Below, piece by piece: positions 6,046-56,151 of a stretch of DNA of 64,000 nucleotides. Below the pieces are notes generated by a model, which worked only from the letters and a program-made list of their open reading frames with translations, did no database searches and had not been told where the DNA came from. Source of the stretch: a virus (Duplodnaviria > Caudoviricetes). How positions within the stretch are numbered: the first letter of the stretch is position 1; the number at the start of each line of letters is the position of its first letter. The DNA lies in IMG/VR virus record IMGVR_UViG_3300028045_000012, positions 1,558 through 65,557 of that record; one strand, 5' to 3'. The translations under genes and the position numbers were made by a program.

Positions 6046-6918
6046 TTAAAATGGTAGTTCTTCATCGTTATCTAAATTGGTTTCTTTATTCGCATCACTA
6101 CTTATATCAAGGTTAGTATCTGCACCATTACTCATAAGATTAATTTCATCTTCCAATGATGCCAATTCTTTTTCCTCTTTATCTTCTTCCGCCACATACT
6201 TACTTTGTTCACTATCCCAAACTGGGGTTTTATTAGTTGCGACAATATTTAAAAAGTTCATATCTTTTTTGGCATAAACGTCATTATGAGTTTCTTCATT
6301 ATTAAACCATTCATCTGCCTTTTCTTTATCAGAAGTTAATATAGAAACATCATCTGGCATTATTGAACTAACTACTGTCCACCCATTACTATCACGATTA
6401 CTTGTAATAATAATATCTCTTCCTTCCCTTGGATCTGAAATATCACCTTTTTGTTGAAAAAGTGGGATTAATTTATCCATAATACCATCACCATTTTTAT
6501 GTTTAAATCTCCAAAATTTTACCCCATGATCTTCGTTGTCCCGGTCAATACCTTTAACAACATAAAATTTTCTTGCAAAAAAACCTTTGGCAAGTTTTTT
6601 TGCCTTTTCACTCCCATCTTGGTATAAGGCATCTTTGGCTTCACATAATGGACATTCAGAACCATCATTTAAATGGTTACAGTAAATTTTAGGCCATTTA
6701 CCATTCACTTCTTTTTCGTGGTAAAAAACCTCTTCAAAAGGTGAACTACCATCTTTGGCAGGTAAAATTCTAAATTTTTTAGTTTGTGTTTTCACACCTT
6801 TTTGTAACTTTTCCGTAAAGTATTTTTTTAATCTATCCTCATTTGAAATTTTTTTGGTAGACTTTTCTTGTGTGTTCTTCTCATATTGAGAAAGAATCGA
6901 ATCTAAAGTTTTACTCAT
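6046..6918 (-). CDS. Single-stranded DNA-binding protein, T4 gp32-like
   Basis: FRILP, C..H...CPLC zinc site, GVKFW, DPREGRD, acidic tail ending DEELPF; adjacent to recombinase. Confidence 0.87.
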   Translation of the reverse strand: MSKTLDSILSQYEKNTQEKSTKKISNEDRLKKYFTEKLQKGVKTQTKKFRILPAKDGSSPFEEVFYHEKEVNGKWPKIYCNHLNDGSECPLCEAKDALYQDGSEKAKKLAKGFFARKFYVVKGIDRDNEDHGVKFWRFKHKNGDGIMDKLIPLFQQKGDISDPREGRDIIITSNRDSNGWTVVSSIMPDDVSILTSDKEKADEWFNNEETHNDVYAKKDMNFLNIVATNKTPVWDSEQSKYVAEEDKEEKELASLEDEINLMSNGADTNLDISSDANKETNLDNDEELPF

Positions 6919-6949
6919 TTTTTAAGTTTTTTAAAATTAATAATATCTA

Positions 6950-6978
6950 AGTATAATAACAAATTTTCAAAAAGTCAA
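6950..6978 (-). promoter_or_regulatory. Sigma70-type promoter for the SSB-recombinase-helicase-RNR operon
   Basis: Minus strand TTGACT-N17-TATACT just upstream of the SSB start. Confidence 0.75.
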
Positions 6979-6979
6979 T

Positions 6980-7008
6980 AAAAAAACCCACAAATTTTGT
7001 GGGTTTTT
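6980..7008 (-). terminator. Intrinsic terminator, potentially bidirectional
   Basis: AAAAACCCACAAA-T-TTTGTGGGTTTTT perfect hairpin flanked by A/T tracts. Confidence 0.8.
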
Positions 7009-7034
7009 CATATGAAAAAATAAATAAAAAAATA

Positions 7035-7778
7035 TTATTTATTAAAAGAATCTTTTATTTCTCTATCATTAAAATTTTCTATATCACTTTGTCTAAGTAT
7101 ATATTCTTCTTCCTCTTCACCACCACCAATATCATACCCTTCTTTTTCTTCCCAATATTCTGGTAGACTTACGTTGTATGGAAATGAATCCATTGACCTC
7201 ATTTCTAATTTTTCTAAAGGTGTGGGGTTTCTTTTCTCAAATTCTTTTTCTAAGTCATCAATCTTAACGATTAAATCATCCATACTGGAAACTTGACTTT
7301 CTAAGTCCCCGAATTTAGATAATAGACTATCCATCTTAGTACTAACGTGATCTACAGAATTTTTTGTTTCTTCAGTCTTATCAACTATATCAGTAACATC
7401 AACTTCAACGGTGTCACCCTCAGGTTCTATCGCAAATTCATCTTCTATACCAACGTCACCACCCATACCTAAAAATGGGTCATCTAAAACATCATCTTCT
7501 ACGGGAAGTTCATCACCCATATCTGGTAGTGGTTCTTCACCACCTTCGGCACCTAAACCTTCTAAGTCTCCGAATGGATTATCACCACCTTCAGGGGTTT
7601 CCCCTTCCATGTCTATAGGTTCTTCTTCATCACCTGGGGGGTCTTGTTCAGTTATCATATCATCTAATAATAATTCACCATTTAAATCATCATCATCTTT
7701 TTTTTCTGAATAGAAGTTATATTCTAAAAGTTGTTTATGTCTTTTTAACTCTTCTAATAAATTTTTTTTATTTCTCAT
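7035..7778 (-). CDS. Acidic, low-complexity and coiled-coil protein, possible prohead core/scaffold or internal head protein
   Basis: Leader MRNKKNLLEELKRHKQLLE, D/E/G/P-rich middle, heptad coiled coil. Confidence 0.55.
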   Translation of the reverse strand: MRNKKNLLEELKRHKQLLEYNFYSEKKDDDDLNGELLLDDMITEQDPPGDEEEPIDMEGETPEGGDNPFGDLEGLGAEGGEEPLPDMGDELPVEDDVLDDPFLGMGGDVGIEDEFAIEPEGDTVEVDVTDIVDKTEETKNSVDHVSTKMDSLLSKFGDLESQVSSMDDLIVKIDDLEKEFEKRNPTPLEKLEMRSMDSFPYNVSLPEYWEEKEGYDIGGGEEEEEYILRQSDIENFNDREIKDSFNK

Positions 7779-7779
7779 A

Positions 7780-7962
7780 TTACATTAATAGTTGTCTACC
7801 ATCATTAGTTTTATAGATCTTATTTACTCTTTCTACAATTTCTTTACCATCATTTATTAAACATTCATCACCAATACATTCTTCTTTGTTAATCCCACCT
7901 AAGAAATCATTTAATTTATCATCTAATGTTTCTTTTTCTTTTTTACTATCTTTATTTTCCAT
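7780..7962 (-). CDS. Small conserved-looking late protein
   Basis: 60-aa ORF preceded by TATTTAT motif and abutting the next gene. Confidence 0.7.
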   Translation of the reverse strand: MENKDSKKEKETLDDKLNDFLGGINKEECIGDECLINDGKEIVERVNKIYKTNDGRQLLM

Positions 7963-7991
7963 AATTTTATTTATATATAAATATAATAATT

Positions 7992-8393
7992 TTAAGAAAA
8001 ATTCCTTTTTATGTCTAATATTTTTAATTCTTTTGAAAAAATAATTATAAAATTATTTTGATAATCATCCCAATTTATATTGAAATCTGAATAATTAACA
8101 TTTCCGGATTGTACATCATATAAACTTTCTATTAATTTATTTAATGCGTTTATAGTATAAAAACATTCACCTTTTTTATGTACTATTATTGTTGGTGGGA
8201 AAAAAGAATTTATATCTACTTTTTGGTCTTCATCTAATTTTAACCTAAAAGTTAATATAACTTTATTAGGTTCACCATAATCGTATTCAAAAATGTTTTT
8301 TATGTGGATATCAAATCTTTTATTTAAATATTTCTTAAAAGATTCTATTTTGTCATTATAAACAAAAGATGCCAAAGTTATCATTCTACCCAT
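7992..8393 (-). CDS. Hypothetical protein
   Basis: 133-aa ORF overlapping the upstream stop. Confidence 0.7.
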   Translation of the reverse strand: MGRMITLASFVYNDKIESFKKYLNKRFDIHIKNIFEYDYGEPNKVILTFRLKLDEDQKVDINSFFPPTIIVHKKGECFYTINALNKLIESLYDVQSGNVNYSDFNINWDDYQNNFIIIFSKELKILDIKRNFS

Positions 8394-8988
8394 TTAATTC
8401 GATATTAACAACATAAGGGATTAATCTTTTTTTATCTTTTATTTTTATTACAAAATCCCTTCTATTATTAAATATCTCATTATCTACAAAAACATTATTT
8501 TTTAATTTATGTATTTTAGATATTACTTTTTCTTTTTTACCTTCAAAAAATTCTAATATATTTAAATCTACCCCAAAAATTATATTTTCACAAAAAATAT
8601 ATATCATACCATTTTTATCCAAATATGTTATTGGAGATTCCAATGATAATATTTTTTTTATAATCCTATAATTAATTCTTTTTTTACCATAAAGAATATC
8701 TAAATAAACATAAGGAATGTTTTCACCAAAATTAGTGAAACAATATTCTTTAAAATTTTCTATGTCTTCATCGTACTCTACTTTTCTCTCTTTCTTATTA
8801 AAAGTCCAAAAAATCCTGGAATTTATTTTTTTATGTAAAATTGATACTGTATTACCATATATAGTTTTAACTTTTTTCCACCCTATTATTAAAGTAGGTA
8901 AAGTTTCATCTATCCCTTCTAAAGTAGGACAAATTTTAAAATTTTCTATATCTAAATTTTGTTTTGTTATTATATTTCCTATATACAT
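8386..8988 (-). CDS. Hypothetical protein
   Basis: 200-aa ORF; TTGATA-N17-TAATAT upstream (8995-9023). Confidence 0.7.
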   Translation of the reverse strand: MYIGNIITKQNLDIENFKICPTLEGIDETLPTLIIGWKKVKTIYGNTVSILHKKINSRIFWTFNKKERKVEYDEDIENFKEYCFTNFGENIPYVYLDILYGKKRINYRIIKKILSLESPITYLDKNGMIYIFCENIIFGVDLNILEFFEGKKEKVISKIHKLKNNVFVDNEIFNNRRDFVIKIKDKKRLIPYVVNIELNG

Positions 8989-9047
8989 AATACAATATTA
9001 TAAAAAAAATAATGCCTTATCAAATATTAATAAGATTAAATTATTAA

Positions 9048-10046
9048 TTAAGGGTTAAAATAATTAATTAATGGGACATTAGAATCGTCTTTTTTGTATG
9101 TAAATGTGTTTAAAACTTTCTCAAAAACTTCAAAAGATTTTTGAATGGTTTTACCATCGGTATTTAATTGTTGACATATTTCCACAGTTTTTGATAAAAC
9201 CGCCCCGTTCCCATCTGACTTACTTACATAATCAAAACAACTCATATCTACACTATCCTTGATTTCTTTCCATACCTTTATCGAATTTGTAAATAAACTA
9301 TCTTGAGAAGATGTTATTTGATCAGGTTTACTTAAACCATTAATCACTAAATCTTTATATTGTTTTCTACCTATAATATATAAATACCCTCTAGGTCTAT
9401 ACCTATATTCGTCACCATCTAAAATATTAAAATATTTATCCTGGGATAAATTATGATTATCATTTGGTGTAAATGATAAATCATCTGATGTACTTGTACT
9501 TGAAGAAAATATTGGTTGTATTGTTAAATATTCCTCTACAGGGGTGTCTGTTACAATAGAGTTTGTTTCTTTTGTAGATGCAGTATAAATAGGTAATACA
9601 TTATCACTACGTGTAATATCCCCATAATAAAGGTTATTATTGGTATTACTAATTTTATTAGGTACTTCACCTACTATATTCCAAGGTAATTCCTTTTCTA
9701 CTAAATTATTTGACTGTACTAAAACATTTGTTAAAAACATAGTAACTTGACTATTTGTAGTTAATTCTTGATTTTTCATGACTTCTTTTAAATTTGTTAG
9801 TTTTAAAGTCTCACTAACACCAAGACTTTTAAAATTAACCTCAGTAAAATTATTATCAAAATCAAAGTCTTTATCAGGATCATTAACGCCAATACTAAAA
9901 ATAGGGTTACCACTTTTTAAATTAGTAAACACAATTTTTGGTATTTCACTACTTTCATTTAAATCTATATCTAAACTAGTTGTTATATCTTCTATTGGTG
10001 GTGTTATAAATTTAGATTGTCTTAATCCTTGAAAACTTGTTGTCAT
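9048..10046 (-). CDS. Probable C-terminal part of the large baseplate hub protein, with a degenerate GH19 lysozyme-like domain
   Basis: DGDEYRYRPRGYLYIIGRKQY resembles GH19 GDGYxYRGRGxIQLTGRxNY; frame continues upstream as TNVNHSISPNH-M into the end of 10070..14398. Confidence 0.6.
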   Translation of the reverse strand: MTTSFQGLRQSKFITPPIEDITTSLDIDLNESSEIPKIVFTNLKSGNPIFSIGVNDPDKDFDFDNNFTEVNFKSLGVSETLKLTNLKEVMKNQELTTNSQVTMFLTNVLVQSNNLVEKELPWNIVGEVPNKISNTNNNLYYGDITRSDNVLPIYTASTKETNSIVTDTPVEEYLTIQPIFSSSTSTSDDLSFTPNDNHNLSQDKYFNILDGDEYRYRPRGYLYIIGRKQYKDLVINGLSKPDQITSSQDSLFTNSIKVWKEIKDSVDMSCFDYVSKSDGNGAVLSKTVEICQQLNTDGKTIQKSFEVFEKVLNTFTYKKDDSNVPLINYFNP

Positions 10047-10069
10047 ATGATTAGGTGAAATACTATGAT

Positions 10070-13000
10070 TTACATTAGTATAAGATACGCCCCATTAAAA
10101 AATGGTACATTTTGTAAATCAAAATACATTAATGGTTGTATATTCATACATCCTAAAGATTCCACTTGACAAGTATATGATCTTGTTTTAAACAACCTTA
10201 ATAAATTCGTACCCTGGTAAGTTCTTTGGGTACTCCCTCTTTTATCAACTAAGTCTGATAATGTTCTAAAATATTCGGCAGTTTCTTTATGTTCCTGTTG
10301 ATTTAATGAAACACTTTTAAATATTGTTTGGTTTTGGGCACCAAAGGCAACCCTAAAGGCAACTAAAGAAAAATTACTATTTGTTATATCTTTTACTGGG
10401 TTACTATCATCAACCATGTCTGGTGGTATTAGACTACCATTTTTAAATGTGAATCCATCATCTTTAAAATAATAATTATTTCTTTCTCCAATATCTAAAA
10501 CTTGTGAATTACCACCTGCGTATATACAACAATAAATTGGTGCAGAAGAAACATTACTCTCTATTGTTGTTTGTGGTTTAAATATTTTAGATACTTCTTC
10601 TACATCTTTATAATTTATATAGTTTGGTAAAATTTGTAATAGAAAATTACTATCTCTTAATAATTTACTCATGAAAAAATATAAACTAACATTTAAATCA
10701 CTACCTAAACTTAAAAAACTTTTTAAATTGAAAACTGCCTTTGAACCTATATCATTCCAACCTCTATCAATAAATTTAAAATAATCTATTAAGTCTCTTC
10801 CTTGTCCACCACATATATTAAATGGTTTTTCTGTATCTGAAATCCATTTATCATTTATATTTTTAAAATAATTATAAAGTTGTAATTTTATCTTTAAATT
10901 ATTTTTTTCTTTTTTTTCTTCATTTTGACTATTAGAATTAGTATTAACAGTCTCTGTTTCACTATTTAGTACACTATATAACCCTCCAATATATTTATTG
11001 ATATCATCAAAAGTTATAGATAAATTATTATTCTCTTTTGTGGGGTTAAAAATATTAGGGTCTAATATAATAAAATCAGTAGTGTCTTTAACCTGGTCTA
11101 ATATTATTTTTTTTGACGATTGTATTTTTTTTTCATCAACACCTTCACTAATTATAAATAAATTACCTTCAAAAATACCTGTAAAATCTTTATTAAAATT
11201 TCCACTAACCCAATTTTTAAATTGATTAATAAACTCTATTTTAACACTTTTAGGTAATGATGTTAAATTATCTTCAATAGAAATATCATTATTTCCAGTT
11301 AAATACCCAAATTTAGTAAAATATTTGTTTTTATCTGTTCTAAAACTATCATAAGAAACTCCGTTAAATGTACCAAAATTTATACTCCCAGTTACATTTT
11401 CTTCTAATCTCCATAATAAACCACCAATATAATAAACATATAAACTAGGTAGTTTTACTATTCTGGAATTATTAAAATTATTACCCTCAAATACTGGATC
11501 AATAAATCCAGTTTTAAATATTTCAAAAGGTAATGTACTTAAACATAGAAGACCTCTTGATAAATTACTTGGTTGGTTTCTATAAAATAAACCTTTAACC
11601 AAATTTTCTTCGTATTCAGTTGTACCAATAGTCTTAAATTCAGTTTTATTAATATGTGGTTCTATTGACTCATACGTTAAATTTTTTAATATATCCAAAG
11701 ATAATTTAGTATTATCTTTTAATAATGTATTACTCACAGAATCTTTAAATACATTAATTAAATTATTAGTAACAATATTATTAGTAGAATCATATTCAGT
11801 AGAAATTTTATCACTTGTAGAACCCGGACTATTTTTTTTGTTACTGTACACATCACTATCTATTATTGATTGTAATAAATTTTTAGTATTTGTGGTTACA
11901 CCTTTATTGTTAAACAAGACATAATCATTACTTTCATTATCATAATCCCCACCTATTTTTACACCATCAAAATCAAAAGAGTTATCTTTTAATGTAATAT
12001 AAGTATTACTAATATTAATACTTTTATTAAATTTAATATCAGATAAAATCTTACCTATTTCAGTGTTGTTACTACTATCTGTAAAAACTTTTAAAATATT
12101 TTCTATTAATAACCTAGTTTGATTACCAATAACAATATTATCAACCATTAACCCATCAAGTTTACCATAACTATTTAATTTACTAATAAAGGGATCTTTA
12201 AATCTTGAATAATTCTTTAATAACATTAATCTTGTTATTATTGTTTTATATAATTCATTTTTTATAGTATCTTTATCGTTTCCTACATTAAAATTAATAA
12301 AAGGGTTAATATCATAATCTATTGGGTTTATTGGGAACCAATTATCACTATCCAAACCATTCCTTAAAATACTCGCCCTTGTAATTTCCCTTAAGTTTTC
12401 TTTTTTATTAACTAATTTGTCAAAAACATTTTCAACAAAATCATATTCTGGGAAAACACTTCTATTAACATTATTAACCTCACCTATATAAATTTCTTCT
12501 TCAGAAGAATTTCCATTTTCTATATAAATTGATGGCCACGCCACACCTTTAGTAGAAGTACTATTATTTATTTTTTCTTGTATAGAGTTTGGTATATCTG
12601 TACTATAATTTTTTAAAATATTACCCCTGTCTTTTATAATTCCTTCTTCTTCTGATTTTACAGTTATATCAGAAATTGTTTCAATCATTGCCTGTGTATT
12701 ATTGGCCAATATTTCAAAACAAGATTTTATTGTTGGATTAAACCCAGTCTCTTTTTTAAAATTTTCTACTAATTCTACATTGATTTCTTCTTCAACTTTC
12801 TCCCTTTGTTTTTTTATCGTAGATTCTAAATCTTTTATTGAGTCTTCAACTAAAACTCTTTGTTCTCTAAAATCTACTACCATAACAACTGTTTCAGGAG
12901 TAAAATTATCATTATAATATTCTTTAGTATTTATTGTATTTTTAAAATTCTCAATTGAGAAATTTTTATTAACATCACCATCATCATAATTTTTTGTTAA

Positions 13001-14398: not shown

Positions 14399-14711
14399 AT
14401 AAAGTTAAATATTTATCTACTTGATTTATATATTGTTGTAAACTATCTTTAAATGGGAATGGTATCCTAATTATTTCATTGTTAGGTATATTTTCTTCTA
14501 CCCCACCATATTGTGGATTGGCCAACAATATTAACCATCCATGAAAAGGGTTATCATAATAAAGTTGACTAAACTTATCTAATCTACTTATTTGTGATTT
14601 ATAAACAACTGTCTTATCCGTATCTTTTGGTTCTATCTTAATAAAAGGTAATGGTTTGTATGTACCATCAACCTTAAAATTTTGATACCTATCATAATAT
14701 TCTTTTCCCAT
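14391..14711 (-). CDS. Baseplate wedge gp53/LysM-like protein
   Basis: RLDKFSQLYYDNPFHGWLILLANP...IIRIP pattern typical of gp53/tail X LysM-like proteins. Confidence 0.75.
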   Translation of the reverse strand: MGKEYYDRYQNFKVDGTYKPLPFIKIEPKDTDKTVVYKSQISRLDKFSQLYYDNPFHGWLILLANPQYGGVEENIPNNEIIRIPFPFKDSLQQYINQVDKYLTLYG

Positions 14712-14718
14712 AATAATT

Positions 14719-18192: not shown

Positions 18193-18340
18193 ACATAATA
18201 TTTTTCTTATTATATAAATATAAGACCATTAAAATTTAAGGAAATTAATATATAGTTATAGTAGTTTTATATTATTTTTTTTACTTATTTAATGTAAAAA
18301 TTATTATATATTCTATTATATATTATATATATATAGTTAT

Positions 18341-18369
18341 ATAGTAATAAATTTTTTTTACAAAGTCAA
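18341..18369 (-). promoter_or_regulatory. Sigma70-type promoter in an AT-rich intergenic region
   Basis: Minus strand TTGACT-N17-TACTAT. Confidence 0.55.
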
Positions 18370-18440
18370 GGGTATAGACAATATTTTTTTATTTATTTTA
18401 AAGTTTCTATATATCCTAATCATTTGAAGTGTCTTTAAAA

Positions 18441-20393: not shown

Positions 20394-20539
20394 TATTTAT
20401 TATCTTTTTTTAAATCTTTTTTTAAATCTTTTATTTCTTTTTTTAATAAAAGAAATTCTTCTTGTAAGAATGTTATGTTAATATTATCTTTAATGTTCTC
20501 AATATCATTAACAACAACTTTAATAAGTTTTTTAAACAT
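20393..20539 (-). CDS. Small coiled-coil protein, 48 aa (not in ORF track)
   Basis: MFKKLIKVVVNDIENIKDNINITFLQEEFLLLKKEIKDLKKDLKKDNK; fills the gap, TAATG coupling to the tape measure start. Confidence 0.55.
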   Translation of the reverse strand: MFKKLIKVVVNDIENIKDNINITFLQEEFLLLKKEIKDLKKDLKKDNK

Positions 20540-41700: not shown

Positions 41701-41703
41701 AAT

Positions 41704-41964
41704 TTAAGGTATTATATCATCTGATTGCCATTCTGGTGTTGACATCAACGCAACCATTTCATCATAATTATAAGGACCTTCAGTTGTTGTAAGTGTTAAA
41801 ACTGAAGGTGGAGTATCACCCTCCCATTTAACAAAAGTTTTTGTTAAATCAATAGATTTTCTAACGGTATTTATTGAAGTTTCTAAGACCTCATTAAAAT
41901 TTATTTTTTCCAATTCAGATACATTAAATATCATGAATGTTCTATGGTCATAAATGTGTGACAT
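41704..41964 (-). CDS. Small phage structural/accessory protein
   Basis: INFNEVLETS..VRKS..KTFVKWEG..GPY..EW pattern typical of small genes beside LamG fibres. Confidence 0.65.
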   Translation of the reverse strand: MSHIYDHRTFMIFNVSELEKINFNEVLETSINTVRKSIDLTKTFVKWEGDTPPSVLTLTTTEGPYNYDEMVALMSTPEWQSDDIIP

Positions 41965-41996
41965 AATTTTTTATTTATTAATAAATATAAATATTT

Positions 41997-42794: not shown

Positions 42795-42795
42795 A

Positions 42796-46967: not shown

Positions 46968-46969
46968 AG

Positions 46970-47491
46970 TTAATATCCGTTAAATTCATCTAAATCAGTA
47001 GGGGTACATGTTATTGTTCTATAAAATCCTTTATAACCACCAATAGTATGTGCGTTATCAGAAAATATTTTCCCATTATTTGTTACTGTATAATATTTTA
47101 TTTCATGTTCATTTTCATTATAACCAATATAGTCACCATAGTTAATATCCACCTCTAATTCATTTAAAGTATCCTGGTAAACACCTAAAGTAATATTACC
47201 ACTTTCTAAATACCTTAAAGAACCTTCAGTATTATAATTTTTATTAGTTGGTGAGGCCAAATTAAAACTCACAGGTATTTCTACTGGTGGTTTAAATCTT
47301 ATACCATTTTTAATAGTTTCACCATATATATCATCTTCTGTAGTTTCAACTCTATCAACTTGAAATAATATTACTTTTATATTTATATCGCCTTCTAACC
47401 ATTCTCTACCGAATTCAATTTCAAGGTTGAAATCATCTTGTGAAAAAAATTTGTTTAGTCTTTCTATTGGTACTATTTTTTTATTAGACAT
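46970..47491 (-). CDS. Head closure / neck protein (gp14-like)
   Basis: DDIYGE, FKPPVEI, INYGDYI, YYTV. Confidence 0.6.
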   Translation of the reverse strand: MSNKKIVPIERLNKFFSQDDFNLEIEFGREWLEGDINIKVILFQVDRVETTEDDIYGETIKNGIRFKPPVEIPVSFNLASPTNKNYNTEGSLRYLESGNITLGVYQDTLNELEVDINYGDYIGYNENEHEIKYYTVTNNGKIFSDNAHTIGGYKGFYRTITCTPTDLDEFNGY

Positions 47492-47546
47492 AATCTTTTA
47501 TAGATAAATATTTCTTTTTAAGAAAAAAATTGTTATTATTATAATT

Positions 47547-50450
47547 ATGTTAGATTTAAAAGATATTAATAATTTAAATAGTGAAACTTTATTAGAAAGT
47601 TATAAAGGTAAAAACCCTTACATAGTTTACATGAAAAAAAAATTATGTGAGGATAAGAAATATATTTTAACTAATAATCAATTAAGTTATGTAAGAAAAT
47701 ATTATAATTTTGAACCTAAAGAACTTAATAAAGTAATAGAATTAACAAATTATTTTAGTGAAGAACTAAAAGAAAAATACAAATTAAAATCCCCACCTAA
47801 AAAAATATTAATAGAAACATTATTGGCAGAATCTGATAAGGCAATGCATGTTTTATGTAAATTTTATCAAAACCAAAAAGGTGTTAAATTAGTATGGATC
47901 CCAAAAACACAATTATTAGATGACATATATTATGAGGAAATCAATGTAGATGTAGATTTTGACTATTATCAAAGAATAGATAAAAGAGGTTGGAAGGCAT
48001 TTAAACATCAAGAAGAAGGGATTAAATTTTTATTGAAAAATAAAAAGTGTATTTTGGCCGATGATATGGGACTTGGGAAATGTTTAGAGGTTGATGAATT
48101 GGTGTACACACCAAATGGTTTAATAAGGATTGGTGACATTAAAATAGGTGATTATGTAATTGGGTCTAATGGTAAAAAAACTAAAGTACTTAGTGTATAC
48201 CCACAAAAAAATAAGAAAAAAATATTTAAAATAACTTTTAATGATGGTTATAGTCTATTAGTTACTGAAGATCATTTATGGGATGTTATGAGTTGTAACA
48301 ACTCAAATAATAGAAATAATGGTAGAAATAAAAGACATTTATTGTTAACCACAAAACAAATGTTAGATGGTAATGGTGAAGTAGAGATTAAAGGTAGTGG
48401 TTCTAATAAAAATAGAGTTTATAAAGTAAAAACATATTATAAACAAAAAAATGGTACATTAAAATGGCAAATACCGTTACTAAGTGAACCTATTCATTTT
48501 GAAAATAAGAAAAAATTATTAATAGATCCTTATTTATTAGGAGTTTGTCTTGGCGATGGACATATAAAAGAAAAATCTGTAAGACTTGAAGTTCATAAAG
48601 ATGATTTTGAAGAAATTTTTAAAGGACAAATAATAAAAGAGAATAAGTCAAAACCTAATACAAGGAGATGTACTATTAAGGTAGGTGAATCAATTAAAAA
48701 ATTAAAATTAAATAATAGTAGATCATATAATAAATTTATACCTAATGTTTATAAATATTCTTCTATTAAAAATAGGTTGTCTATACTTCAAGGTCTGATG
48801 GATACAGATGGACATTGTTGTAAACCAATAGATGGTAATTTTCGTGGTACAAAATTCTGTTCTATTTCTGAAAAACTAGTTGATGATGTTGCAGAAATTG
48901 TACATAGTTTAGGTGGTATAGTGAAAAAAAATAGTTGGATACCTACATATACGTATAAAAATGAAAAGAAAAAAGGTAAGAGGGCGTATTCTTTATACAT
49001 TAAATTACCTGATGGAATGAATCCTTTTAGACTGAAAAGAAAGTCTAATTTATATAATTCTCCTAAAAAATATAAAGTTGGTAGATATATAAAAAGTATT
49101 GATTATGTAAGAGAAGGTGATTCTGTATGTATCTCTGTTGATTCTGATGATCACTTATTTGTTGCAAAACATGGTATAGTTACACATAACACATACCAGT
49201 CAATAACTGCATCATTAGAAAGTGATGCGAATAGAATATTAGTAGTTTGTCCTTCATCATTAAAAATAAATTGGATGAGAGAAATAGAAAATTTCACTGA
49301 TGATGTGTCAATAATAAATGGATCACATTGGGACCCTTCCCGGTTTACTATAATAAATTATGAAATATTAAAAAAATTCCATACAATAAAAGAAAAAAAT
49401 AAAGAATATGAGGACTGGGAACTTAGGAGAGAGATTGTTGAATATAATCCAGATATAATAATATTAGACGAGGCACATTATGTTAAAAACCATAAAAGTA
49501 ATAGGGGTAAAATAATAATAGATATCGTGAAAAATTATGGTACTGAGAAGGTATGGTTGTTAACTGGGACACCTATTGCAAATAGACCTATGGATTACTA
49601 TAACCTTTTATCAATTATAGATTCACCTGTTACAAATAATTGGGTACATTTTGCAAAAACATATTGTGAAGGTAAAAGGTTTAGAAAAGGTAAAAAATAT
49701 ATATGGGTAACTAAGGGGGCATCTAATCTTGAGGAATTGTCTGCAAAAACAAGAAAAACTATATTACGTAGGAAAAAGGAAGATGTGTTAGATTTACCTG
49801 AAAAATTAGTAACACCAGTTTATTTAGAACTTAAAAATGTTGACCAATATAAAAGTGTGTGGGATGATTATCTATTAAAACGTAAAGAAGAAGGGAAAAG
49901 GGGGAATCCTGCAAGGGATTTAGTAGAAATGACTTTATTGCGAACATTTATTTCTATGGAAACTGTACCGTATTCAATAGAAAAGGCAGAAGAGGCTTTA
50001 GAATTAGGTAAAAAAGTTATAATATTTTGTAATTTTAATGATGAAATGGATGCATTTATAACTCATTTTGGTGATAAATCTGTTTGTGTAAGGGGTGGAA
50101 TGAGTAATAAACAAAAACAAATTTCTGTTGATAAATTTCAAGAAGATAAAAATTGTATGGTTTTTATTGGTCAAATAAAGGCTGCGGGTGTTGGTTTAAC
50201 ACTAACAGAGGGTGAAATTGTTATTATGAATTCTTTAGATTGGGTTCCTGGTACACATGAACAGGCAGAAGATAGGGCATATAGGATAGGACAAAACAAA
50301 ACTGTTAATATTTATTATATGTTAATAGATAAAACTATTGACACATTGATTTGGAAAATTTTACAAAATAAAAAGAAAATCATTGGAACTATAATAGGTG
50401 AAGATGAAATTATAACAGAATTTATAAATGAAACAAAAAATGAAAGTTAA
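47547..50450 (+). CDS. SNF2-family helicase containing an intein
   Basis: LADDMGLGK|T, CPSSL, DEAH, LTGTP, GVGLTL, QAEDRAYRIGQ. Confidence 0.93.
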   Translation: MLDLKDINNLNSETLLESYKGKNPYIVYMKKKLCEDKKYILTNNQLSYVRKYYNFEPKELNKVIELTNYFSEELKEKYKLKSPPKKILIETLLAESDKAMHVLCKFYQNQKGVKLVWIPKTQLLDDIYYEEINVDVDFDYYQRIDKRGWKAFKHQEEGIKFLLKNKKCILADDMGLGKCLEVDELVYTPNGLIRIGDIKIGDYVIGSNGKKTKVLSVYPQKNKKKIFKITFNDGYSLLVTEDHLWDVMSCNNSNNRNNGRNKRHLLLTTKQMLDGNGEVEIKGSGSNKNRVYKVKTYYKQKNGTLKWQIPLLSEPIHFENKKKLLIDPYLLGVCLGDGHIKEKSVRLEVHKDDFEEIFKGQIIKENKSKPNTRRCTIKVGESIKKLKLNNSRSYNKFIPNVYKYSSIKNRLSILQGLMDTDGHCCKPIDGNFRGTKFCSISEKLVDDVAEIVHSLGGIVKKNSWIPTYTYKNEKKKGKRAYSLYIKLPDGMNPFRLKRKSNLYNSPKKYKVGRYIKSIDYVREGDSVCISVDSDDHLFVAKHGIVTHNTYQSITASLESDANRILVVCPSSLKINWMREIENFTDDVSIINGSHWDPSRFTIINYEILKKFHTIKEKNKEYEDWELRREIVEYNPDIIILDEAHYVKNHKSNRGKIIIDIVKNYGTEKVWLLTGTPIANRPMDYYNLLSIIDSPVTNNWVHFAKTYCEGKRFRKGKKYIWVTKGASNLEELSAKTRKTILRRKKEDVLDLPEKLVTPVYLELKNVDQYKSVWDDYLLKRKEEGKRGNPARDLVEMTLLRTFISMETVPYSIEKAEEALELGKKVIIFCNFNDEMDAFITHFGDKSVCVRGGMSNKQKQISVDKFQEDKNCMVFIGQIKAAGVGLTLTEGEIVIMNSLDWVPGTHEQAEDRAYRIGQNKTVNIYYMLIDKTIDTLIWKILQNKKKIIGTIIGEDEIITEFINETKNES
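48081..49190 (+). mobile_element. Intein (370 aa) with LAGLIDADG homing endonuclease
   Basis: Begins CLEVD after GLGK, ends VTHN before Thr; block B TEDH; LLGVCLGDG and LQGLMDTDG. Confidence 0.95.
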
Positions 50451-50697
50451 AGTATTTTCTATGAAGGGTTGTTCACATTGTGATGAATTAAAAAAACAGT
50501 TAAATGAAAATAAAATAAATTTCATTGAATTGGATGTTGATGAACATGAAGAGTTATATGAAAGTTTTTCAAAAAAAGTGGAGAATGAATTTTTACCTGC
50601 AATTATTATAGGTAAGACAGTATTTGTCCCTAATAAGTCATTTAAAACTATAACTGAGGCGGTGGGACATGTTAAAACTCACCTGTTGGGGCCTTAG
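50428..50697 (+). CDS. Glutaredoxin-like protein
   Basis: CSHC redox motif, LPAIII; true start may be 50440. Confidence 0.85.
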   Translation: MKQKMKVKVFSMKGCSHCDELKKQLNENKINFIELDVDEHEELYESFSKKVENEFLPAIIIGKTVFVPNKSFKTITEAVGHVKTHLLGP

Positions 50698-51034
50698 GAC
50701 CATCACCATTAAGGTTAAAATTTTGGTTATCTACATCATGTTTATCAATCATATTACCTAAAACATTAATGATATTATCAAATCTATCATCTTTTTTAGT
50801 GGAATACCCTAGTTGTCTACCACCATTACTTAAAAGAGATAATCTTACTTCATCTAAGACTTTTTTTATTTCATCATTTTCTACATATTGTAACGCAGAT
50901 TCAATATATCTTAAACCATTCACTAAACTTTCCATACCTTTATGTGATAATGAAATTGCGATTTCATCTTTAGATTTATTTTTACCTTCTTTTAAAATTT
51001 TTTTAAGTTGACTTTCTGTTATAATAATTTTCAT
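50672..51034 (-). CDS. Leader-bearing hypothetical protein
   Basis: MKIIITESQLKKILKE leader, like 24802..26256. Confidence 0.7.
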   Translation of the reverse strand: MKIIITESQLKKILKEGKNKSKDEIAISLSHKGMESLVNGLRYIESALQYVENDEIKKVLDEVRLSLLSNGGRQLGYSTKKDDRFDNIINVLGNMIDKHDVDNQNFNLNGDGPKAPTGEF

Positions 51035-51060
51035 ATTGTTTATTTTTTTTTTTGTAAGTA

Positions 51061-51576
51061 TTATCTATTATCATTTATATATCCTTCATCATAATTAAAC
51101 ATATTACCATTATTATCATACTCATATTTCCTCCAATAACCATCAGAATTTTCATAATATATCACACTATCCTTATTATTATATTCCCATTTCCACCATC
51201 TACCCCTAGAATTTTCAGAATTTATTCTATTACCCCTATCATCATAATCACCTTTCTCCCAAAACCCATCAGAATCTTCATAATATATTCTATTACCCTT
51301 ATCATCATATTCAAATTTCTCCCACCAACCACTAGAATTTTCTAGATATATCAGATAACCCTTATCATCATAGAAATATTCCCCATCAATACTTACATCA
51401 TTACCCAATATCTTTTTCATTATATATTCCTGATCACCCTTTTCATATATGGTTAAACCTTCCATTGATCTTAAATAAGGTAAATGAACATGGTCAGATA
51501 TTATATCTAATCTACGATAATGTCTATCAGATTTATCTATTTCCTCTCTTAATATTTTTTTTATTAATCTCTTCAT
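51061..51576 (-). CDS. Leader-bearing 21-aa repeat protein, paralogue 4
   Basis: MKRLIKKILREE; about 5 units; ends INDNR. Confidence 0.85.
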   Translation of the reverse strand: MKRLIKKILREEIDKSDRHYRRLDIISDHVHLPYLRSMEGLTIYEKGDQEYIMKKILGNDVSIDGEYFYDDKGYLIYLENSSGWWEKFEYDDKGNRIYYEDSDGFWEKGDYDDRGNRINSENSRGRWWKWEYNNKDSVIYYENSDGYWRKYEYDNNGNMFNYDEGYINDNR

Positions 51577-51582
51577 AATTTT

Positions 51583-52062
51583 TTATCTTCTATCCCATAT
51601 ATCACCATCAGAATCTTCAGTATATATCTTATTACCCCTATCATCATATTCCCATTTCCTCCAATAACCATAAGAATTTTCATTATATATCATATTATCC
51701 TTATCATCATATTTAAATCTACCCCAAAACCCATCAGAACGTTCATAATATATCATATCACCCTTATCATCGTAGATATATACCCTGAGTCCTGTTTTGA
51801 CAATAGATATATTACCATATATTTTACTTAATATATATTCCTGTTCTTCTTCAGTTAATTCAAGAACATTAAATATATTAAAATATGGTGGACCATATTC
51901 CTTAAAATAACCAAACAACAAATCTATTAAATCATAACCCTGACCTTCAGATAGATATTTAACCATTTCAATATTTTCATCTTGTCCAGAATTAAGAAGA
52001 TTAAATAAGTTATCTTTAAATTCTTTATGTTCCCTTAGTATTCGTTTAATTAATTTTTTCAT
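51583..52062 (-). CDS. Leader-bearing 21-aa repeat protein, paralogue 5
   Basis: MKKLIKRILREH; distinct N-domain; 3 units; TATTTAT motif at 52077-52083. Confidence 0.85.
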   Translation of the reverse strand: MKKLIKRILREHKEFKDNLFNLLNSGQDENIEMVKYLSEGQGYDLIDLLFGYFKEYGPPYFNIFNVLELTEEEQEYILSKIYGNISIVKTGLRVYIYDDKGDMIYYERSDGFWGRFKYDDKDNMIYNENSYGYWRKWEYDDRGNKIYTEDSDGDIWDRR

Positions 52063-52164
52063 AATTTGTATTCAATATAAATATAATTTTTATTAATTTC
52101 AAAAGAATATCTTTTTTTTTTTAAGTTTTCCTAATAATTAAATATTTATATATAAATATATATT

Positions 52165-53319
52165 ATGGCGAATTCTATTAATGATAATTTAAAAAAAGAA
52201 TTATTTACACAAATAAAACATAGGTTAGGGGCACCAATAAGAAAAATTGAATTAGATTGGGATCAAATGAATTCTTTATTGGAAACTTCCATAGAAGATT
52301 ATGCCCAAAGAGTACAAGATTGGTTAATAGAAAATCAATGGTCTTCATTATTAGGTAATAATGCAGATAAGTTAGATATTGCGTTTGCGTTAACAACAAG
52401 ATCTTTAGATTATGAAAGTAGATTTTCTTATGCCTATTCTAAACAAGTTGGTCTACAACAAAGAGGTCCCTGGGAAATGAAAAAAGACTATATAACAGTA
52501 ATTAAAGATCAACAAGTTTATCAGATACCTTCAGGTAGAGAAATTAATGAAATTCTTTGGATTACACCAAACTCAACTGATCATGCGTTATATTCTTTTG
52601 CAGGATTTGGTGATTATGGTTTTGGTGGTGGTTTCGGACAAGTACCCTTTGGTGGTGCAGGTCAAGGTGGGGGTTTAGGTAATGGTGGATTTTATGTCGC
52701 ACCAGCCTTTGATGTTTTATTAAGGGCATCTGACTTTAGCCTTAAATCGAAATTATTAAGAAGTGAATTAACATATAAAGTTACTGCGGGACCTAATGGT
52801 ACAAGATTATTACATCTTATGCCAATACCTGGTAGTGGGTTATCATTTGCCGGTGGTGGGTTAGTAGGTGGTGCTATTGGTTTGGCAGGTACTAAAGTTT
52901 GGTACCACTATTATGATACTTCAGACATGTCAGATGATGAAAAATTAAATTGTTTAAATGAAAATAAAGATATAATTAAATTACCAAATGAAGTACCCTT
53001 AACTAAATTAAGGTATTCAGATTTAAATGAACCGACAAGAATTTGGGTTAGAAGGTATCTCACTTCACTATTTAAAGAGGCATTAGGTAGAGTAAGAGGT
53101 AAATTTAGTGGTTCGTTAAAAGTCCCAGAGGCAGAATTAACTATGGATTACGATTCTTTATTGAGTGAAGGTAAAGAAGAACAATTAAAACTTTTGGAAC
53201 AATTAGATTTAAGATTAGAAAGGTTAAGTAACCTTAAACAATTGGAAAATAAGGCATTAGAGTCTGAAAACTTAAATAAATCTTTAAGTTATAGACCCCT
53301 TGGTCTTTTTGTCATATGA
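52165..53319 (+). CDS. Neck protein (gp13-like head-tail adaptor)
   Basis: RLGAPIRKIELD..Q, QQVYQIP, WVRRY..SLFKEALGRVRGKF, EGKEE. Confidence 0.8.
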   Translation: MANSINDNLKKELFTQIKHRLGAPIRKIELDWDQMNSLLETSIEDYAQRVQDWLIENQWSSLLGNNADKLDIAFALTTRSLDYESRFSYAYSKQVGLQQRGPWEMKKDYITVIKDQQVYQIPSGREINEILWITPNSTDHALYSFAGFGDYGFGGGFGQVPFGGAGQGGGLGNGGFYVAPAFDVLLRASDFSLKSKLLRSELTYKVTAGPNGTRLLHLMPIPGSGLSFAGGGLVGGAIGLAGTKVWYHYYDTSDMSDDEKLNCLNENKDIIKLPNEVPLTKLRYSDLNEPTRIWVRRYLTSLFKEALGRVRGKFSGSLKVPEAELTMDYDSLLSEGKEEQLKLLEQLDLRLERLSNLKQLENKALESENLNKSLSYRPLGLFVI

Positions 53320-56151
53320 AAATTCATCTTGGATATTATATTCTTCAAACATATAAGTAGGTGAAACCCCAATTTTATCCCAAAATTTTAATTCTTCATC
53401 TGTGATAGTTAAAAGTTCTTCAATTTTATCTTGATCACTTTCTTTATATGGTTGTCCAGATGTTAATTGTAATTCTTGTTTGGTGAAATAATTTCTGTCT
53501 AAAGGTGTGTTAATTAATAAATCATCTCTTACTGAATAATCAAAACAAACTAATAAGGGTTTTACTCTTTTATTAAAAGCGTCTAAATATCTTGGTACAT
53601 TATATTCTATAGACATTTCTGTTTCATTTTCTAATACATCTTTAGGTATTAATTTACAATTTAACCTAATTGTTGTTGTGTATGCATCATCAGGATATTT
53701 TCCATTACCACTAAAAAATTGGTCCATTTCTTTTTTATTATATTTACATTTTGTAACCCTTTGAACATCACCATGAGATTTTTTCGTTGATGTGTTAACA
53801 TAATGTATTGTGTCTCCTAAATCTACATTTAATTTCTCTTTAATTATTAGTTCCATATGTGCCTGTCTTGCCATTGCACCACCAGACTTATTTTTAGTTT
53901 TCATCTTTTTTTTATAATCATTTACACTTATTCTTACCCTTGATTTATTTGCAATTTTAGATAATGGTATTTCTAAGTTATAAATTTTTTCTACTGTTTC
54001 GTAATATTCATTCACAAAACTATGGCCATCACCATTTAATAATAGTTTAATACCTTTATCTATAAAATCTGATATATAGGTAGGCATTTTTTTTGATTTA
54101 ATAGAATTACCCACTAATTTAACTTCACCATTAATTAAATCTGCATAATTTTTTCTTGCAATATTAATAGTTGCCTCACAAATTTCATCAATATCTAACC
54201 CCATACGACCTCTCATATATTTATCATTGTATTCTCCGACTACTGCATTCATACCAGTATAAGTTTTTCCTTTTTTATTAAATCTATGAACACCATTAGA
54301 AGTATAAATAAACTTATTAATATCTAATGGGATGGAATAATTAAAACCATCGGTATCACCTACTAGTGGTTTAAATCCCTTAGAAATAAAAAATCTAATC
54401 ATATGTCTAAGATATTGTCTACCTGTACAAGTTATTTTTTCACCTATATCAGTATCACCCCAAGGATATACATGTGGTGCAGATATAGAACCAAACATAC
54501 CATTATTTAACATTTTTAAAGGTAATTGTTTTTTATCAAAAAAAGATGACTTAATAAAATCACCTTTAAGTGCGTATTCATTTTTTAATGCCTTATAATG
54601 GTCACGTTTATCATAATTATATGTTAATAACCCTTTCATCGCACCACTTACATCACACTCAGTAAAAACATCATGTGTTAATTGTATTGATGGGTATAAC
54701 CCTGCAAAATCAAACTTTACGACACCCACACTAAACCCAACCTCTAACAACCTAGATAACCCACCAATAAACCCTCTGGTTTTTTGAGTATGTGGTATTG
54801 CGATACCTAATTTATAATACCAACCTAACATTAGTAATTTCCAGGTGGCGGCAGTACCCATAGTAGATGTTCTCATAAAAGATGTGGGTATTATTTTTGA
54901 TAAAAGATAAGTTGCCTGATTAAAAATATCATCAACTTTCTCTGTTTCCCATAAGTCATCTATGAGGTATCTTTCTACTATATCTGAACCTTTTAGTTTA
55001 ATTGTGTTTTTAGGGACCACATCATCTATAATAACACCCCACTCACCATTTTCATCGTTTAACCAATAATCATTTAATTTGTCATTATATGTTTTACCTA
55101 TTTTATCACCAGGTATGTATACACGATTAGGTTTTGCCGCATTAGAATATTGTGTAATATATTTTAACCCTGCCTTTTTTATTGAGGAATTAATTGCCTG
55201 TGCCCTTCTAACTGCATGATAAACGTCCATTATGTTATATCCAAACATATGTGTTTGTTCATACCATTCCATCTCAGGTCCCATTTTCACAGTTCTTTTT
55301 TTTCTATAAAAAGAACTCTTACCTAAGGTTAAGGCAATTTTTTTAATATCTATTTTTAATTTTTGACATCTTACTACTATAAAATTCCAATCAAAATTTT
55401 CAGAATTATAACCTGATATAATTGCAGGTTTTAAGTAATCAATAAATAGAAAAAATTTCGTTATTATATCTATTTCTAATGTTTTTAATGTTTCTTCATC
55501 TTCTTGTTCATTGTTAACAGATAATACATGTTGAAACCCTTTGTTATCTTTTATCCCAATCTGGAAAATTCTATGTCTATGTGGGTCCAAACCAGTAGTT
55601 TCTAAATCAAAAGATAGTCTATGGACATCACTATATTCTTCCATACCTTTAAAAAGTCTTTTTCCTGTTTGTATTAAAAACTGTTCTGTAGGTGAAATTG
55701 TTAAAAAGAAATTTCTAAATTCTGGTGAATTTTTATCACTAGGGTCTATTAATTTATCAGAAAATGGGTCTAAACCCCCTTTTTTAAAAAAATTAATTAA
55801 ATCACCATATGTGCCTTTACAAGTTACTAAAAATTTGTAACCATTTTCTAACCTTAAAACTTCGTTATCATTCGCATCAACTGTTGAAAGTGGTATAAAT
55901 TTAACTTTATATTCTCTCATTTTAGTCTTAACTAGTCTTGTATTTCCATTATAAAATAAAGACATAGGGGGAGATTTCATCCATAAAAAAGGTTTTAACG
56001 AATGTTTTTCAATTCTTTTACCATTTTCCTGATCATGAATTATTAAACTAATTTTATTTTCTCGATAAGAAGACTCTACACCTACAATATATTTTTGTTT
56101 ATCATAACCTTCTAAATATTCTTTTATTTCTTCTATTATTGATGTGGACAT
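53284..56151 (-). CDS. Family B DNA polymerase with 3'-5' exonuclease
   Basis: DLETTG (Exo I), YNSENFD (Exo II), YLIDD (Exo III), FDFAGLYPS, KMLNNGMFG, GDTDG, KNY. Confidence 0.95.
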   Translation of the reverse strand: MSTSIIEEIKEYLEGYDKQKYIVGVESSYRENKISLIIHDQENGKRIEKHSLKPFLWMKSPPMSLFYNGNTRLVKTKMREYKVKFIPLSTVDANDNEVLRLENGYKFLVTCKGTYGDLINFFKKGGLDPFSDKLIDPSDKNSPEFRNFFLTISPTEQFLIQTGKRLFKGMEEYSDVHRLSFDLETTGLDPHRHRIFQIGIKDNKGFQHVLSVNNEQEDEETLKTLEIDIITKFFLFIDYLKPAIISGYNSENFDWNFIVVRCQKLKIDIKKIALTLGKSSFYRKKRTVKMGPEMEWYEQTHMFGYNIMDVYHAVRRAQAINSSIKKAGLKYITQYSNAAKPNRVYIPGDKIGKTYNDKLNDYWLNDENGEWGVIIDDVVPKNTIKLKGSDIVERYLIDDLWETEKVDDIFNQATYLLSKIIPTSFMRTSTMGTAATWKLLMLGWYYKLGIAIPHTQKTRGFIGGLSRLLEVGFSVGVVKFDFAGLYPSIQLTHDVFTECDVSGAMKGLLTYNYDKRDHYKALKNEYALKGDFIKSSFFDKKQLPLKMLNNGMFGSISAPHVYPWGDTDIGEKITCTGRQYLRHMIRFFISKGFKPLVGDTDGFNYSIPLDINKFIYTSNGVHRFNKKGKTYTGMNAVVGEYNDKYMRGRMGLDIDEICEATINIARKNYADLINGEVKLVGNSIKSKKMPTYISDFIDKGIKLLLNGDGHSFVNEYYETVEKIYNLEIPLSKIANKSRVRISVNDYKKKMKTKNKSGGAMARQAHMELIIKEKLNVDLGDTIHYVNTSTKKSHGDVQRVTKCKYNKKEMDQFFSGNGKYPDDAYTTTIRLNCKLIPKDVLENETEMSIEYNVPRYLDAFNKRVKPLLVCFDYSVRDDLLINTPLDRNYFTKQELQLTSGQPYKESDQDKIEELLTITDEELKFWDKIGVSPTYMFEEYNIQDEFSYDKKTKGSIT

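Follow-up and report, generated by a model that had tools for sequence, protein, structure and literature searches.

Near-complete avoidance of the degenerate word AGCD/HGCT in DNA of a marine T4-like jumbo phage

Restriction-site avoidance is an established feature of phage genomes (Rusinov et al. 2018, PMC6286503), and motif avoidance by phages can be read as a fossil record of what hosts aim at them. The stretch considered here, called the window, is 64,000 nucleotides of phage DNA (bases 1558–65557 of the IMG/VR virus record IMGVR_UViG_3300028045_000012, which is 65,557 bases long), most of which is nearly free of AGCD and its complement HGCT (D = A, G or T). As in restriction-site avoidance, a DNA word has been selected out of a phage genome on both strands and in one lineage, and textbook palindrome cases occur within the same clade. 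The finding belongs with known defence-motif avoidance, of which it is an extreme and unusual instance: the known sites are 4–6 bp long, mostly palindromic and assigned to identified enzymes, whereas the word lost from the window is an asymmetric, degenerate 4-mer with a three-base core, and its loss is near-total. We know of no cognate enzyme for AGCD/HGCT, nor of any bacterial restriction enzyme with a specificity as short as that implied here.

Several described systems share part of this picture. The chlorovirus nucleases CviJI (RGCY, relaxed to RGCY/YGCY/RGCR), Nt.CviPII (CCD) and Nt.CviQII (RAG) (PMC7019647, PMC3017599) prove that specificities of two to three bases and of the 'not-C' kind exist; that of CviJI is a GC core after a purine, and a sister group of the phage avoids roughly the RGCY set of CviJI. 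These enzymes differ in that they belong to viruses of eukaryotic algae, in which protection comes from methylation and not from site loss, and the window spares GGCN, so its word is not RGCN. The restriction system LlaJI attacks DNA that lacks methylation; its site is short and asymmetric, and its specificity comes from an McrB-like subunit (PMC1459862). It may resemble operons of Bacteroidota, discussed below, that combine a 5-methylcytosine (5mC) methyltransferase, an McrB-like GTPase and a second subunit with a weak RE_LlaJI match, but LlaJI itself has two methyltransferases and a 5-bp site, GACGC (PMC1459862). Depletion of protospacer-adjacent motifs (PAMs) likewise concerns very short asymmetric motifs selected against on both strands for a small additive benefit, although the published cases involve known PAMs (CC; type I-C, I-E and II-A motifs) (PMC4246573, PMC12174588). 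DarT2 marks DNA at a four-base motif, and the more sites a genome had, the higher the cost would be; its motif is TNTC, however, and its target is thymidine (PMC11543638).

The avoided word and the extent of its loss

The record comes from a marine T4-like jumbo-phage lineage and has a CheckV completeness estimate of 19%, which implies a full genome of roughly 345 kb. Over the whole window AGC occurs 109 times and GCT 85 times, 194 in all, where a first-order Markov model expects about 476, and the sites are clustered when counted by 1-kb bin. A first partition separated 46,116 site-poor bases, holding 24 AGC/GCT, from 17,884 site-rich bases, holding 170. In the site-poor part the observed/expected ratio (O/E) is 0.039 by base composition (expected up to 610) and 0.10 by the Markov model (24 vs 244), and the next-lowest trinucleotide class, CGA/TCG, stands at 0.36. 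Synonymous-codon shuffles within each of 38 genes of the site-poor part (43,386 nt) provided a conservative null, as they keep the already skewed codon usage; 33 AGC/GCT were observed against 194.6 ± 10.0 (z = −16.1), the most extreme value of the 32 trinucleotide classes. An earlier note on this DNA had proposed extreme avoidance of AGC/GCT and had named an O/E near 1 as the outcome that would speak against it, and neither the Markov ratio nor the shuffles approach that value.

The counts by gene that the earlier note had made by eye were also borne out. The tail sheath gene (948 amino acids, 31729–34575, minus strand; Pfam Phage_sheath_1C) contains zero AGC or GCT against a shuffle mean of 20.0, and the family-B DNA polymerase gene (53284–56151) contains one against 16.2. 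Across 10070–18192, where about one site had been claimed, the open reading frame (ORF) at 10070–14398 has one against 11.8 and that at 14719–18192 has none against 10.5; the single site between 6638 and 19104, at position 14393, is AGCC. Alanine coding was as described too, both in its choice of codons (GCA 197, GCC 65, GCG 61 and GCT 15, so that GCT makes up 15/338 in the 38 genes) and in the scarcity of A-ending codons ahead of alanine (10 vs 135.9 expected). TGCA, TGCG, GGCA and GGCC are at or above expectation in the site-poor part, and the avoided word would be expected about 8 times per kb.

The word really avoided is the degenerate 4-mer AGCD/HGCT and not the bare trinucleotide that had been proposed, because 17 of the 24 site-poor survivors are AGCC/GGCT. 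On both strands of the site-poor part there are 4 AGCA where 99 are expected, 1 AGCG where 36 are expected and 2 AGCT where 99 are expected. AGCC is down only two- to three-fold relative to relatives, and GGCA (141 vs 36), GGCC (36 vs 13) and GGCG (38 vs 13) are enriched. A CviJI-like pressure, whether on RGCY or on the relaxed RGCN plus NGCY, does not fit these counts, as GGCA, GGCC and GGCG are enriched rather than depleted. AGCT alone is insufficient as an explanation, since AGCA and AGCG are depleted as much as AGCT. AGCT sites do lie mostly in site-rich segments, as had been noticed (one in the site-poor part and nine in the rich), and AGCT is low in the rich blocks as well (18 vs 87). 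No enzyme site in the literature searched corresponds to AGCD/HGCT, and among the titles and abstracts listed there was no prior report of AGC/GCT or AGCD avoidance and none of an AGCD/HGCT specificity.

The depletion is strand-symmetric and acts on DNA, not on translation or RNA. The coding strand lacks AGC as well as GCT, and the tolerated exceptions form a complementary pair on that strand: GCT alanine codons are kept after G, and A-ending codons are kept before GCC. The GC|T codon junction, in which alanine is not involved, occurs once against 9.9 expected and stands at 0.4–0.9 of expectation in four groups of relatives. Intergenic DNA outside 35780–42795 (3,475 nt) has 0 AGC/GCT among 10 GC dinucleotides, and intergenic DNA within that interval has 9 among 14. 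We place the effect at the DNA level because the two strands share the tolerance and because intergenic DNA obeys the rule seen in genes. The interpretation offered in the earlier note therefore stands as regards strand-symmetric selection on DNA (both orientations missing, the A|GCC / G|GCT exception, non-coding DNA that follows its block) and falls as regards the bare 3-bp motif and, as described below, the division into core and accessory genes. RNA-level cutting, for example by a GCU-specific mRNA interferase, was rejected, as AGC and GCT are both absent from the coding strand and intergenic DNA behaves in the same way.

The absence of AGC/GCT that had been reported is not all specific to this phage: part of the absence in frames 2 and 3 reflects a clade-wide G|C junction bias, and NAG|C and NNG|CT junctions are absent in the window and throughout the clade, AGC-rich relatives included. 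This clade-wide bias against a codon-third G followed by a next-codon-first C has an O/E of 0.3–0.47 and is strongest for AG|C and G|CT.

Sites were destroyed at the outer, synonymous base, the C and G of the motif being left as they were, and because they were lost through synonymous changes, selection and not mutation is needed to account for them. In the sheath gene, codon-aligned with 37 relatives, none of the 49 alanine codons comes after a codon that ends in A, whereas 568 of 2022 do so in the relatives; GCT codons number 0 against 4–33, the alanine count is 49 against 50–66, and 0/53 GC dinucleotides are in AGCD context. The deamination products ACT/AGT are not in excess in the site-poor part (O/E 0.83). 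A purge so near to completion implies an agent that reads DNA with very short specificity, be it a nuclease, a nickase or a base modifier, and it indicates that under pressure from defences a jumbo phage can change synonymous positions by the thousand.

Lineage specificity and block structure

The depletion is lineage-specific and graded with relatedness. The relatives examined comprised the best 80 of 324 IMG/VR sheath matches, 26 SNF2 loci, 80 ribonucleotide reductase loci and the best 80 of 281 metagenome matches, and among them no second lineage comes close to the same purge. Each of the 37 aligned relatives has 16–60 AGC/GCT in the sheath gene, in which the window has 0. The closer in identity a sheath gene is to that of the window, the smaller the fraction of its GC dinucleotides in AGCD context (Spearman rho = −0.48, p = 3e-8; 121 unique genes, not independent in phylogeny), and the nearest relative has 9/49. 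Avoidance thus differs between related phages by lineage, both in sheath counts and in the subset of AGCN that is avoided. The signal reproduces beyond this one assembly: two other IMG/VR contigs overlap the record start at 100% and 99.3% identity and run past it by 3.3 and 10.3 kb, the respective extensions having 1 AGCD in 41 and 3 in 85 GC dinucleotides, and short contigs identical to the window, in its poor and rich parts both, occur in two of four runs examined at the level of contigs.

The only other AGCD-free stretch found is a 1599-amino-acid ORF that, in one group of relatives, lies beside the sheath gene (L055:4864–9663, minus strand). It carries several glycosyltransferase domains and an FkbM methyltransferase domain and shows 29–43 consecutive AGCD-free GC dinucleotides, with AGCC tolerated. 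Homologues occur in L038, L039, L051, L052, L056, L206, L216 and L223 and none in the window; the neighbours of this ORF are not AGCD-free.

The wider clade avoids 4-mer palindromes in a variable manner that fits heavy restriction pressure. A survey took in 127 loci of 12 kb or more, of which 126 belong to this phage clade and one is a distant match. CGCG and GCGC have low values throughout (median O/E 0.14 and 0.19), and CCGG, AGCT or GATC fall to 0, each in different lineages. Six relatives (L027, L038, L047, L052, L054 and L076) show AGCT-only avoidance, with 0–3 sites on one strand against 36–56 expected. The group closest to the window (L004, L006, L007, L008, L070 and L085) avoids AGCC/GGCT (3 vs 43) and AGCT (8 vs 104) and partly AGCA (37 vs 104), and it enriches AGCG (74 vs 43), alanine GCG being unusually frequent. 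The tolerated fourth base is G in this closest group and C in the window, and sister lineages avoid different three-of-four subsets of AGCN. Within the window itself CGCG is wholly absent (0 vs 13–35 expected) and GCGC has one site, in rich and poor blocks alike. Another relative, G007 (the record of L134, 76% complete), has no AGCN avoidance; its PF00145 methyltransferase ORFs number at least four, with three arranged in tandem (106.2–108.8 kb and 153.3–154.3 kb). This looks like an alternative strategy in which sites are methylated rather than purged; the G007 methyltransferases are only about 34% identical to the 5mC methyltransferase of the present phage and gave no clue to the specificity of that enzyme.

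The sites that remain in the window lie mainly in five blocks. All four site-rich segments that had been listed earlier are correct, and two more were found, at 135–1414 and 25630–26842. The former, block A, lies within the class II ribonucleotide reductase gene (114–1973, minus strand) and has 9–10 AGCD among 24 GC dinucleotides; the rest of that gene (559 nt) has 7 GC dinucleotides and no AGCD. Block B (19104–20167) occupies the middle of a 650-amino-acid ORF (18441–20393), with 16 AGCD and 8 AGCC among 36 GC dinucleotides, and the flanks of the ORF on either side have 9 GC dinucleotides and no AGCD. Block C (25630–26842) covers parts of the ORFs at 24802–26256 and 26398–27477, the latter with a PG_binding_1 domain. 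Block D (36047–42851, 6.8 kb) has 50 AGCD among 115 GC dinucleotides and includes intergenic DNA; its ORFs are class I SAM (S-adenosylmethionine) methyltransferase-like, virion structural-like, a ConA-like lectin and two of unknown function. Block E (58867–61765) spans the C-terminal three quarters of a 1276-amino-acid ORF (58780–62610, minus strand) and has 42 AGCD among 107 GC dinucleotides. Here a tandem array of 42-nt (14-amino-acid) repeats runs from 59633 to 61599 on the minus strand (Tandem Repeats Finder: period 42, about 8 plus about 37 copies). Its consensus unit contains CAGCA or CAGCG, and because each unit carries one AGCD, amplification of the repeat multiplies sites in this block. 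The encoded protein is Ser/Ala-rich and consists mostly of about 45 degenerate copies of the 42-nt repeat; PHROG 25468 matches it nine times, and it is probably a fibre or surface protein.

Between these blocks AGCD is rare. Site-poor block 1 (1415–19103), which encodes a DnaB-like helicase, a 5'-3' exonuclease, a UvsX-like recombinase, a gp32-like protein and giant ORFs of 1442 and 1157 amino acids, has AGCD only at 5636, 5897 and 5995, besides some AGCC/GGCT sites, and contains an AGCD-free run of 13,109 nt (5995–19103). In block 2 (20168–25629) AGCD occurs only at 22885 and 24398, and six further sites are AGCC/GGCT. Block 3 (26843–36046), with tail tube-like ORFs, the sheath gene and a patatin-like ORF, has AGCD only at 30950, the sole AGCT of the site-poor part, and at 35522. 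Block 4 (42852–58866), with a 1047-amino-acid ORF, an SNF2 helicase and the family-B DNA polymerase, has AGCD only at 52873 and 53578 and an AGCD-free run of 10,022 nt. Block 5 (61766–64000) includes the N-terminal part of the 1276-amino-acid repeat protein, and its portion at 61766–62610 has at most one AGCD among 17 GC dinucleotides, though it is part of the same gene as block E.

Four of the five site-rich blocks start or stop inside a gene, and their same-gene flanks have at most 1 AGCD among 42 GC dinucleotides. Rich and poor blocks differ in other words too (O/E of GATC 0.15 vs 0.52, GGCC 0.21 vs 1.10 and CCGG 0.31 vs 0.99), with CGCG and GCGC at about 0 in both. Core versus accessory, the axis drawn in the earlier note, is thus the wrong one: block edges lie inside genes, intergenic DNA is included, and so is part of a syntenic gene. 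'Accessory' is a wrong label because block A sits in the ribonucleotide reductase gene, and five large relatives have that gene in synteny with 71–77% nucleotide identity. The block edges and k-mer signatures point instead to a contrast of older with newer DNA, in which the rich blocks would have entered or expanded after most of the purge; the purged or unpurged state would then separate older DNA from mosaic blocks. A foreign origin of the ribonucleotide reductase and UvsX genes was considered and rejected, as syntenic orthologues are present in five relatives at 71–77% nucleotide identity. An apparent joint from 36099 to 43567 that skips block D, seen in three runs, was unreliable (29 letters on one side, 90% likeness) and was not counted.

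The 5mC methyltransferase and possible agents

A clue to the host comes from a C-5 cytosine methyltransferase gene just outside the window start, cut by the end of the record (bases 2–619 of the record, L268; minus strand). The truncated copy is a member of PF00145 (211.8 bits, above the family cut-off), and an identical full-length protein, P0001 (318 amino acids; L291:368–1321), matches TIGR00675 at 264 bits and has readable motifs (FSGSGG, GPPCQGFS, ENV, QNRKR and GNSVP). The gene is absent from five other clade records (G001–G004 and G008), which are 39–93% complete. Its catalytic domain is closest to M.HaeIII; only residues 4–174 and 253–313 align to 1dct, and about 175–252 does not. The target-recognition stretch is thus without alignment, and an M.HaeIII-type (GGCC) specificity was not supported; comparison with PDB, NCBIfam and PADLOC likewise allowed no specificity to be inferred, the matches being to the catalytic part or to generic names. 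Its best homologues, with 64–75% identity along the whole protein, belong to Bacteroidota (Mesonia mobilis, Flavobacterium, Fluviicola, Mucilaginibacter and Pedobacter), and the named database matches include Xanthomarina, Mariniflexile and Pseudalgibacter.

In five of eight bacterial loci the methyltransferase heads an operon with an McrB-like AAA_5 protein, a subunit that PADLOC calls REase_II. Four of those loci add a protein of roughly 556 amino acids, and RE_LlaJI matches one of the two such proteins scanned (E = 2e-4, below the cut-off). With this weak match, the gene order may correspond to that of a restriction system of the LlaJI type. Marine Bacteroidota are the likely hosts because the homologues of the methyltransferase are found there, and the phage appears to have been exposed to LlaJI/McrBC-like systems. 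Putative host DNA is AGCD-rich (in L273, for example, 100 AGCD among 208 GC dinucleotides). The phage methyltransferase gene is itself purged, with 0 AGCD among 7 GC dinucleotides against 8–19 among 25–39 in bacterial homologues, which weakens the idea that its capture relaxed selection and let site-rich DNA in. As a side hypothesis, the enzyme may cover RGCC-type sites (AGCC/GGCT and GGCC), because AGCC is tolerated and GGCC is relaxed, more so than any other 4-mer when set against the clade (1.0 vs 0.33).

We tentatively favour, at a little less than an even chance, selection by a methylation-sensitive, restriction-type host defence that targets a short DNA motif through a recognition element with an AGC core. 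That element would be unusually short and asymmetric, the agent would be a nuclease belonging to the host, and the hosts are probably marine Bacteroidota. Each site would bear a small, roughly additive cost, which is proposed because the window tolerates blocks that hold about 170 sites, and selection would act over a long time on one site after another. Sites would be removed singly by synonymous change, GCT going to GCA, GCC or GCG and an A-ending codon before alanine going to a G-, C- or T-ending one. Only later-arriving or later-expanding DNA would keep its sites, namely five recombination-imported blocks, one tandem-amplified.

Several observations weigh against this explanation. Our searches found no agent with AGCD specificity and we know of none, nuclease or otherwise; a link between the Bacteroidota methyltransferase operon and AGCD is hypothetical, and the host assignment itself comes from one gene. 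With at least 170 sites remaining in the window, a classical and efficient restriction enzyme would destroy the genome, and the cost must be small or the pressure past. Because the methyltransferase gene is purged, its capture did not relieve selection and its target need not be AGC-related; because the sister group tolerates G and not C, at least two specificities or a second factor would be needed. As to the origin of the rich blocks, near-identical sources did not turn up by blastn, first against 106 loci and then against 266, and in a protein scan for a donor of the ribonucleotide reductase the highest amino-acid identity was 87%. Like the core, pieces of block D are only 75–82% identical to relatives, and AGCD-bearing tiles in the ribonucleotide reductase and UvsX genes are slightly closer to relatives (86–88%).

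A bolder proposal, which we regard as possible though doubtful, is that marine Bacteroidota carry a widespread and undescribed anti-phage system reading three to four bases, with an AGC core and a varying fourth base (AGCD here, AGCH in the sister group). A LlaJI/McrBC-like, GTP-dependent complex would be the candidate, and the stolen methyltransferase would patch AGCC/GGCC. If this is true, such a system would be weak enough at each site for phages to survive with some sites and yet, given time, would clear a genome of about 345 kb of thousands of them.

Another explanation is that several restriction-modification systems in the host pool, an AluI-type enzyme for AGCT together with others for AGCA/TGCT and AGCG/CGCT, jointly mimic avoidance of a trinucleotide. 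We consider this unlikely, but it has precedent in the AGCT-only avoidance of the six relatives named above and in the AGCC plus AGCT avoidance of another group; such systems could accumulate stepwise, the graded trend with relatedness fits, and AGCT is low in the rich blocks too. It requires, however, two further non-palindromic 4-bp specificities that share the AGC core, and AGCA, AGCG and AGCT are all at the same near-zero level. To our knowledge no asymmetric 4-bp enzymes for AGCA or AGCG have been described. Less probable again is a host toxin that modifies single-stranded DNA at AGCD, either a DarT-like ADP-ribosyltransferase or a cytosine deaminase, with a cost set by site number and gene essentiality. 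An additive cost per site would fit the leftover blocks, and both strands are single-stranded in replication, which would make the avoidance symmetric. We know of no DarT-like or deaminase motif of AGC type and of no report that phages avoid the DarT2 motif, although DarT2 does provide an example of a four-base motif, TNTC, and DarTG is anti-phage (PMC11543638). The lost sites changed at flanking bases, ACT/AGT at an O/E of 0.83 reveals no excess from deamination, and block edges inside genes speak against gene essentiality as the variable. A nuclease or nickase of the phage's own, shredding host DNA at a short motif from which its own genome is free, appears quite improbable. Nucleases with 2–4 bp sites that chloroviruses encode and package do degrade host DNA within minutes (PMC7019647, PMC3017599), phage HNH nickases with 3–7 bp sites include one with a GAGCAD core (PMC3592412), and the AGCD-rich putative host DNA of L273 would make a suitable target; but no candidate was found among 48 window ORFs searched with Pfam and 7 ORFs of the 10-kb extension, the record representing about 19% of the genome, and the phage's own site-rich blocks would be cut.

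PAMs used in CRISPR immunity are 2–5 nt long and asymmetric, are read on either strand and often exclude one base (TTTV, GTH). Avoidance of such a motif, the loss of which from conserved DNA blocks both spacer acquisition and interference, would bring a small additive benefit per site, as in the PAM depletion published for phages; that depletion is, however, a statistical difference between phage groups (PMC4246573, PMC12174588). The other signatures of the clade are classical 4-mer palindromes, and this explanation has in our view very little chance of being correct. We know of no AGC-type PAM and of no PAM depletion that approaches near-total loss. More remote still is erosion by the phage's own 5mC methyltransferase, which would methylate AGC-type sites that are then lost by deamination, as CpG has been in vertebrates. 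A lineage-specific PF00145 methyltransferase does exist, absent from G001–G004 and G008 as described above, but deamination in A|GCN or GCT would turn alanine into valine or threonine, whereas the changes seen are synonymous and flanking; nor are ACT/AGT in excess (O/E 0.83). Vertebrate CpG loss is also far shallower than the depletion of AGCD here. Translational codon or codon-pair bias, or an assembly artefact, is hardly credible. Most of the lineage-specific signal is indeed at alanine codons (GCT and A|GCN), and a clade-wide G|C junction bias exists, but neither the symmetric exception nor the GC|T junction (1 vs 9.9) nor the intergenic pattern fits a translational cause; blocks within one gene differ, and independent contigs and other runs carry the same sequence.

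Gene content of the record

The window has a G+C content of 28%, and nearly all its genes are on the minus strand. Its T4-like replication module comprises the class II ribonucleotide reductase, DnaB-like helicase, 5'-3' exonuclease, UvsX-like recombinase and gp32-like protein, together with the SNF2 helicase and the family-B DNA polymerase, and a contractile-tail module includes the 948-amino-acid sheath; many ORFs have no family. The sheath is only about 27–38% identical to those of the closest GenBank phages, and hundreds of sheath relatives at 63–87% identity are found among IMG/VR and metagenome contigs. Word matches place the lineage in 22 listed runs from 19 coded studies, labelled seawater or marine. 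The window contains no tRNA genes and hence none that carry AGCT.

Immediately upstream of the sheath gene is an ORF for a patatin-like phospholipase (34868–35779, minus strand; Pfam E = 3e-10). The methyltransferase and ribonucleotide reductase genes are separated by a gene for an aspartate-ammonia ligase (AsnA; Pfam E = 8e-94; record bases 623–1636, minus strand), which appears to be an auxiliary metabolic gene. The SNF2-family helicase (47547–50450, plus strand) has 967 amino acids, with the SNF2 domain spread across residues 154–769 and a weak Hint-module match at residues 176–262. In many relatives the same 967 residues match over only about 1.8 kb of DNA, which suggests an intein-like insert present in some lineages and absent in others.

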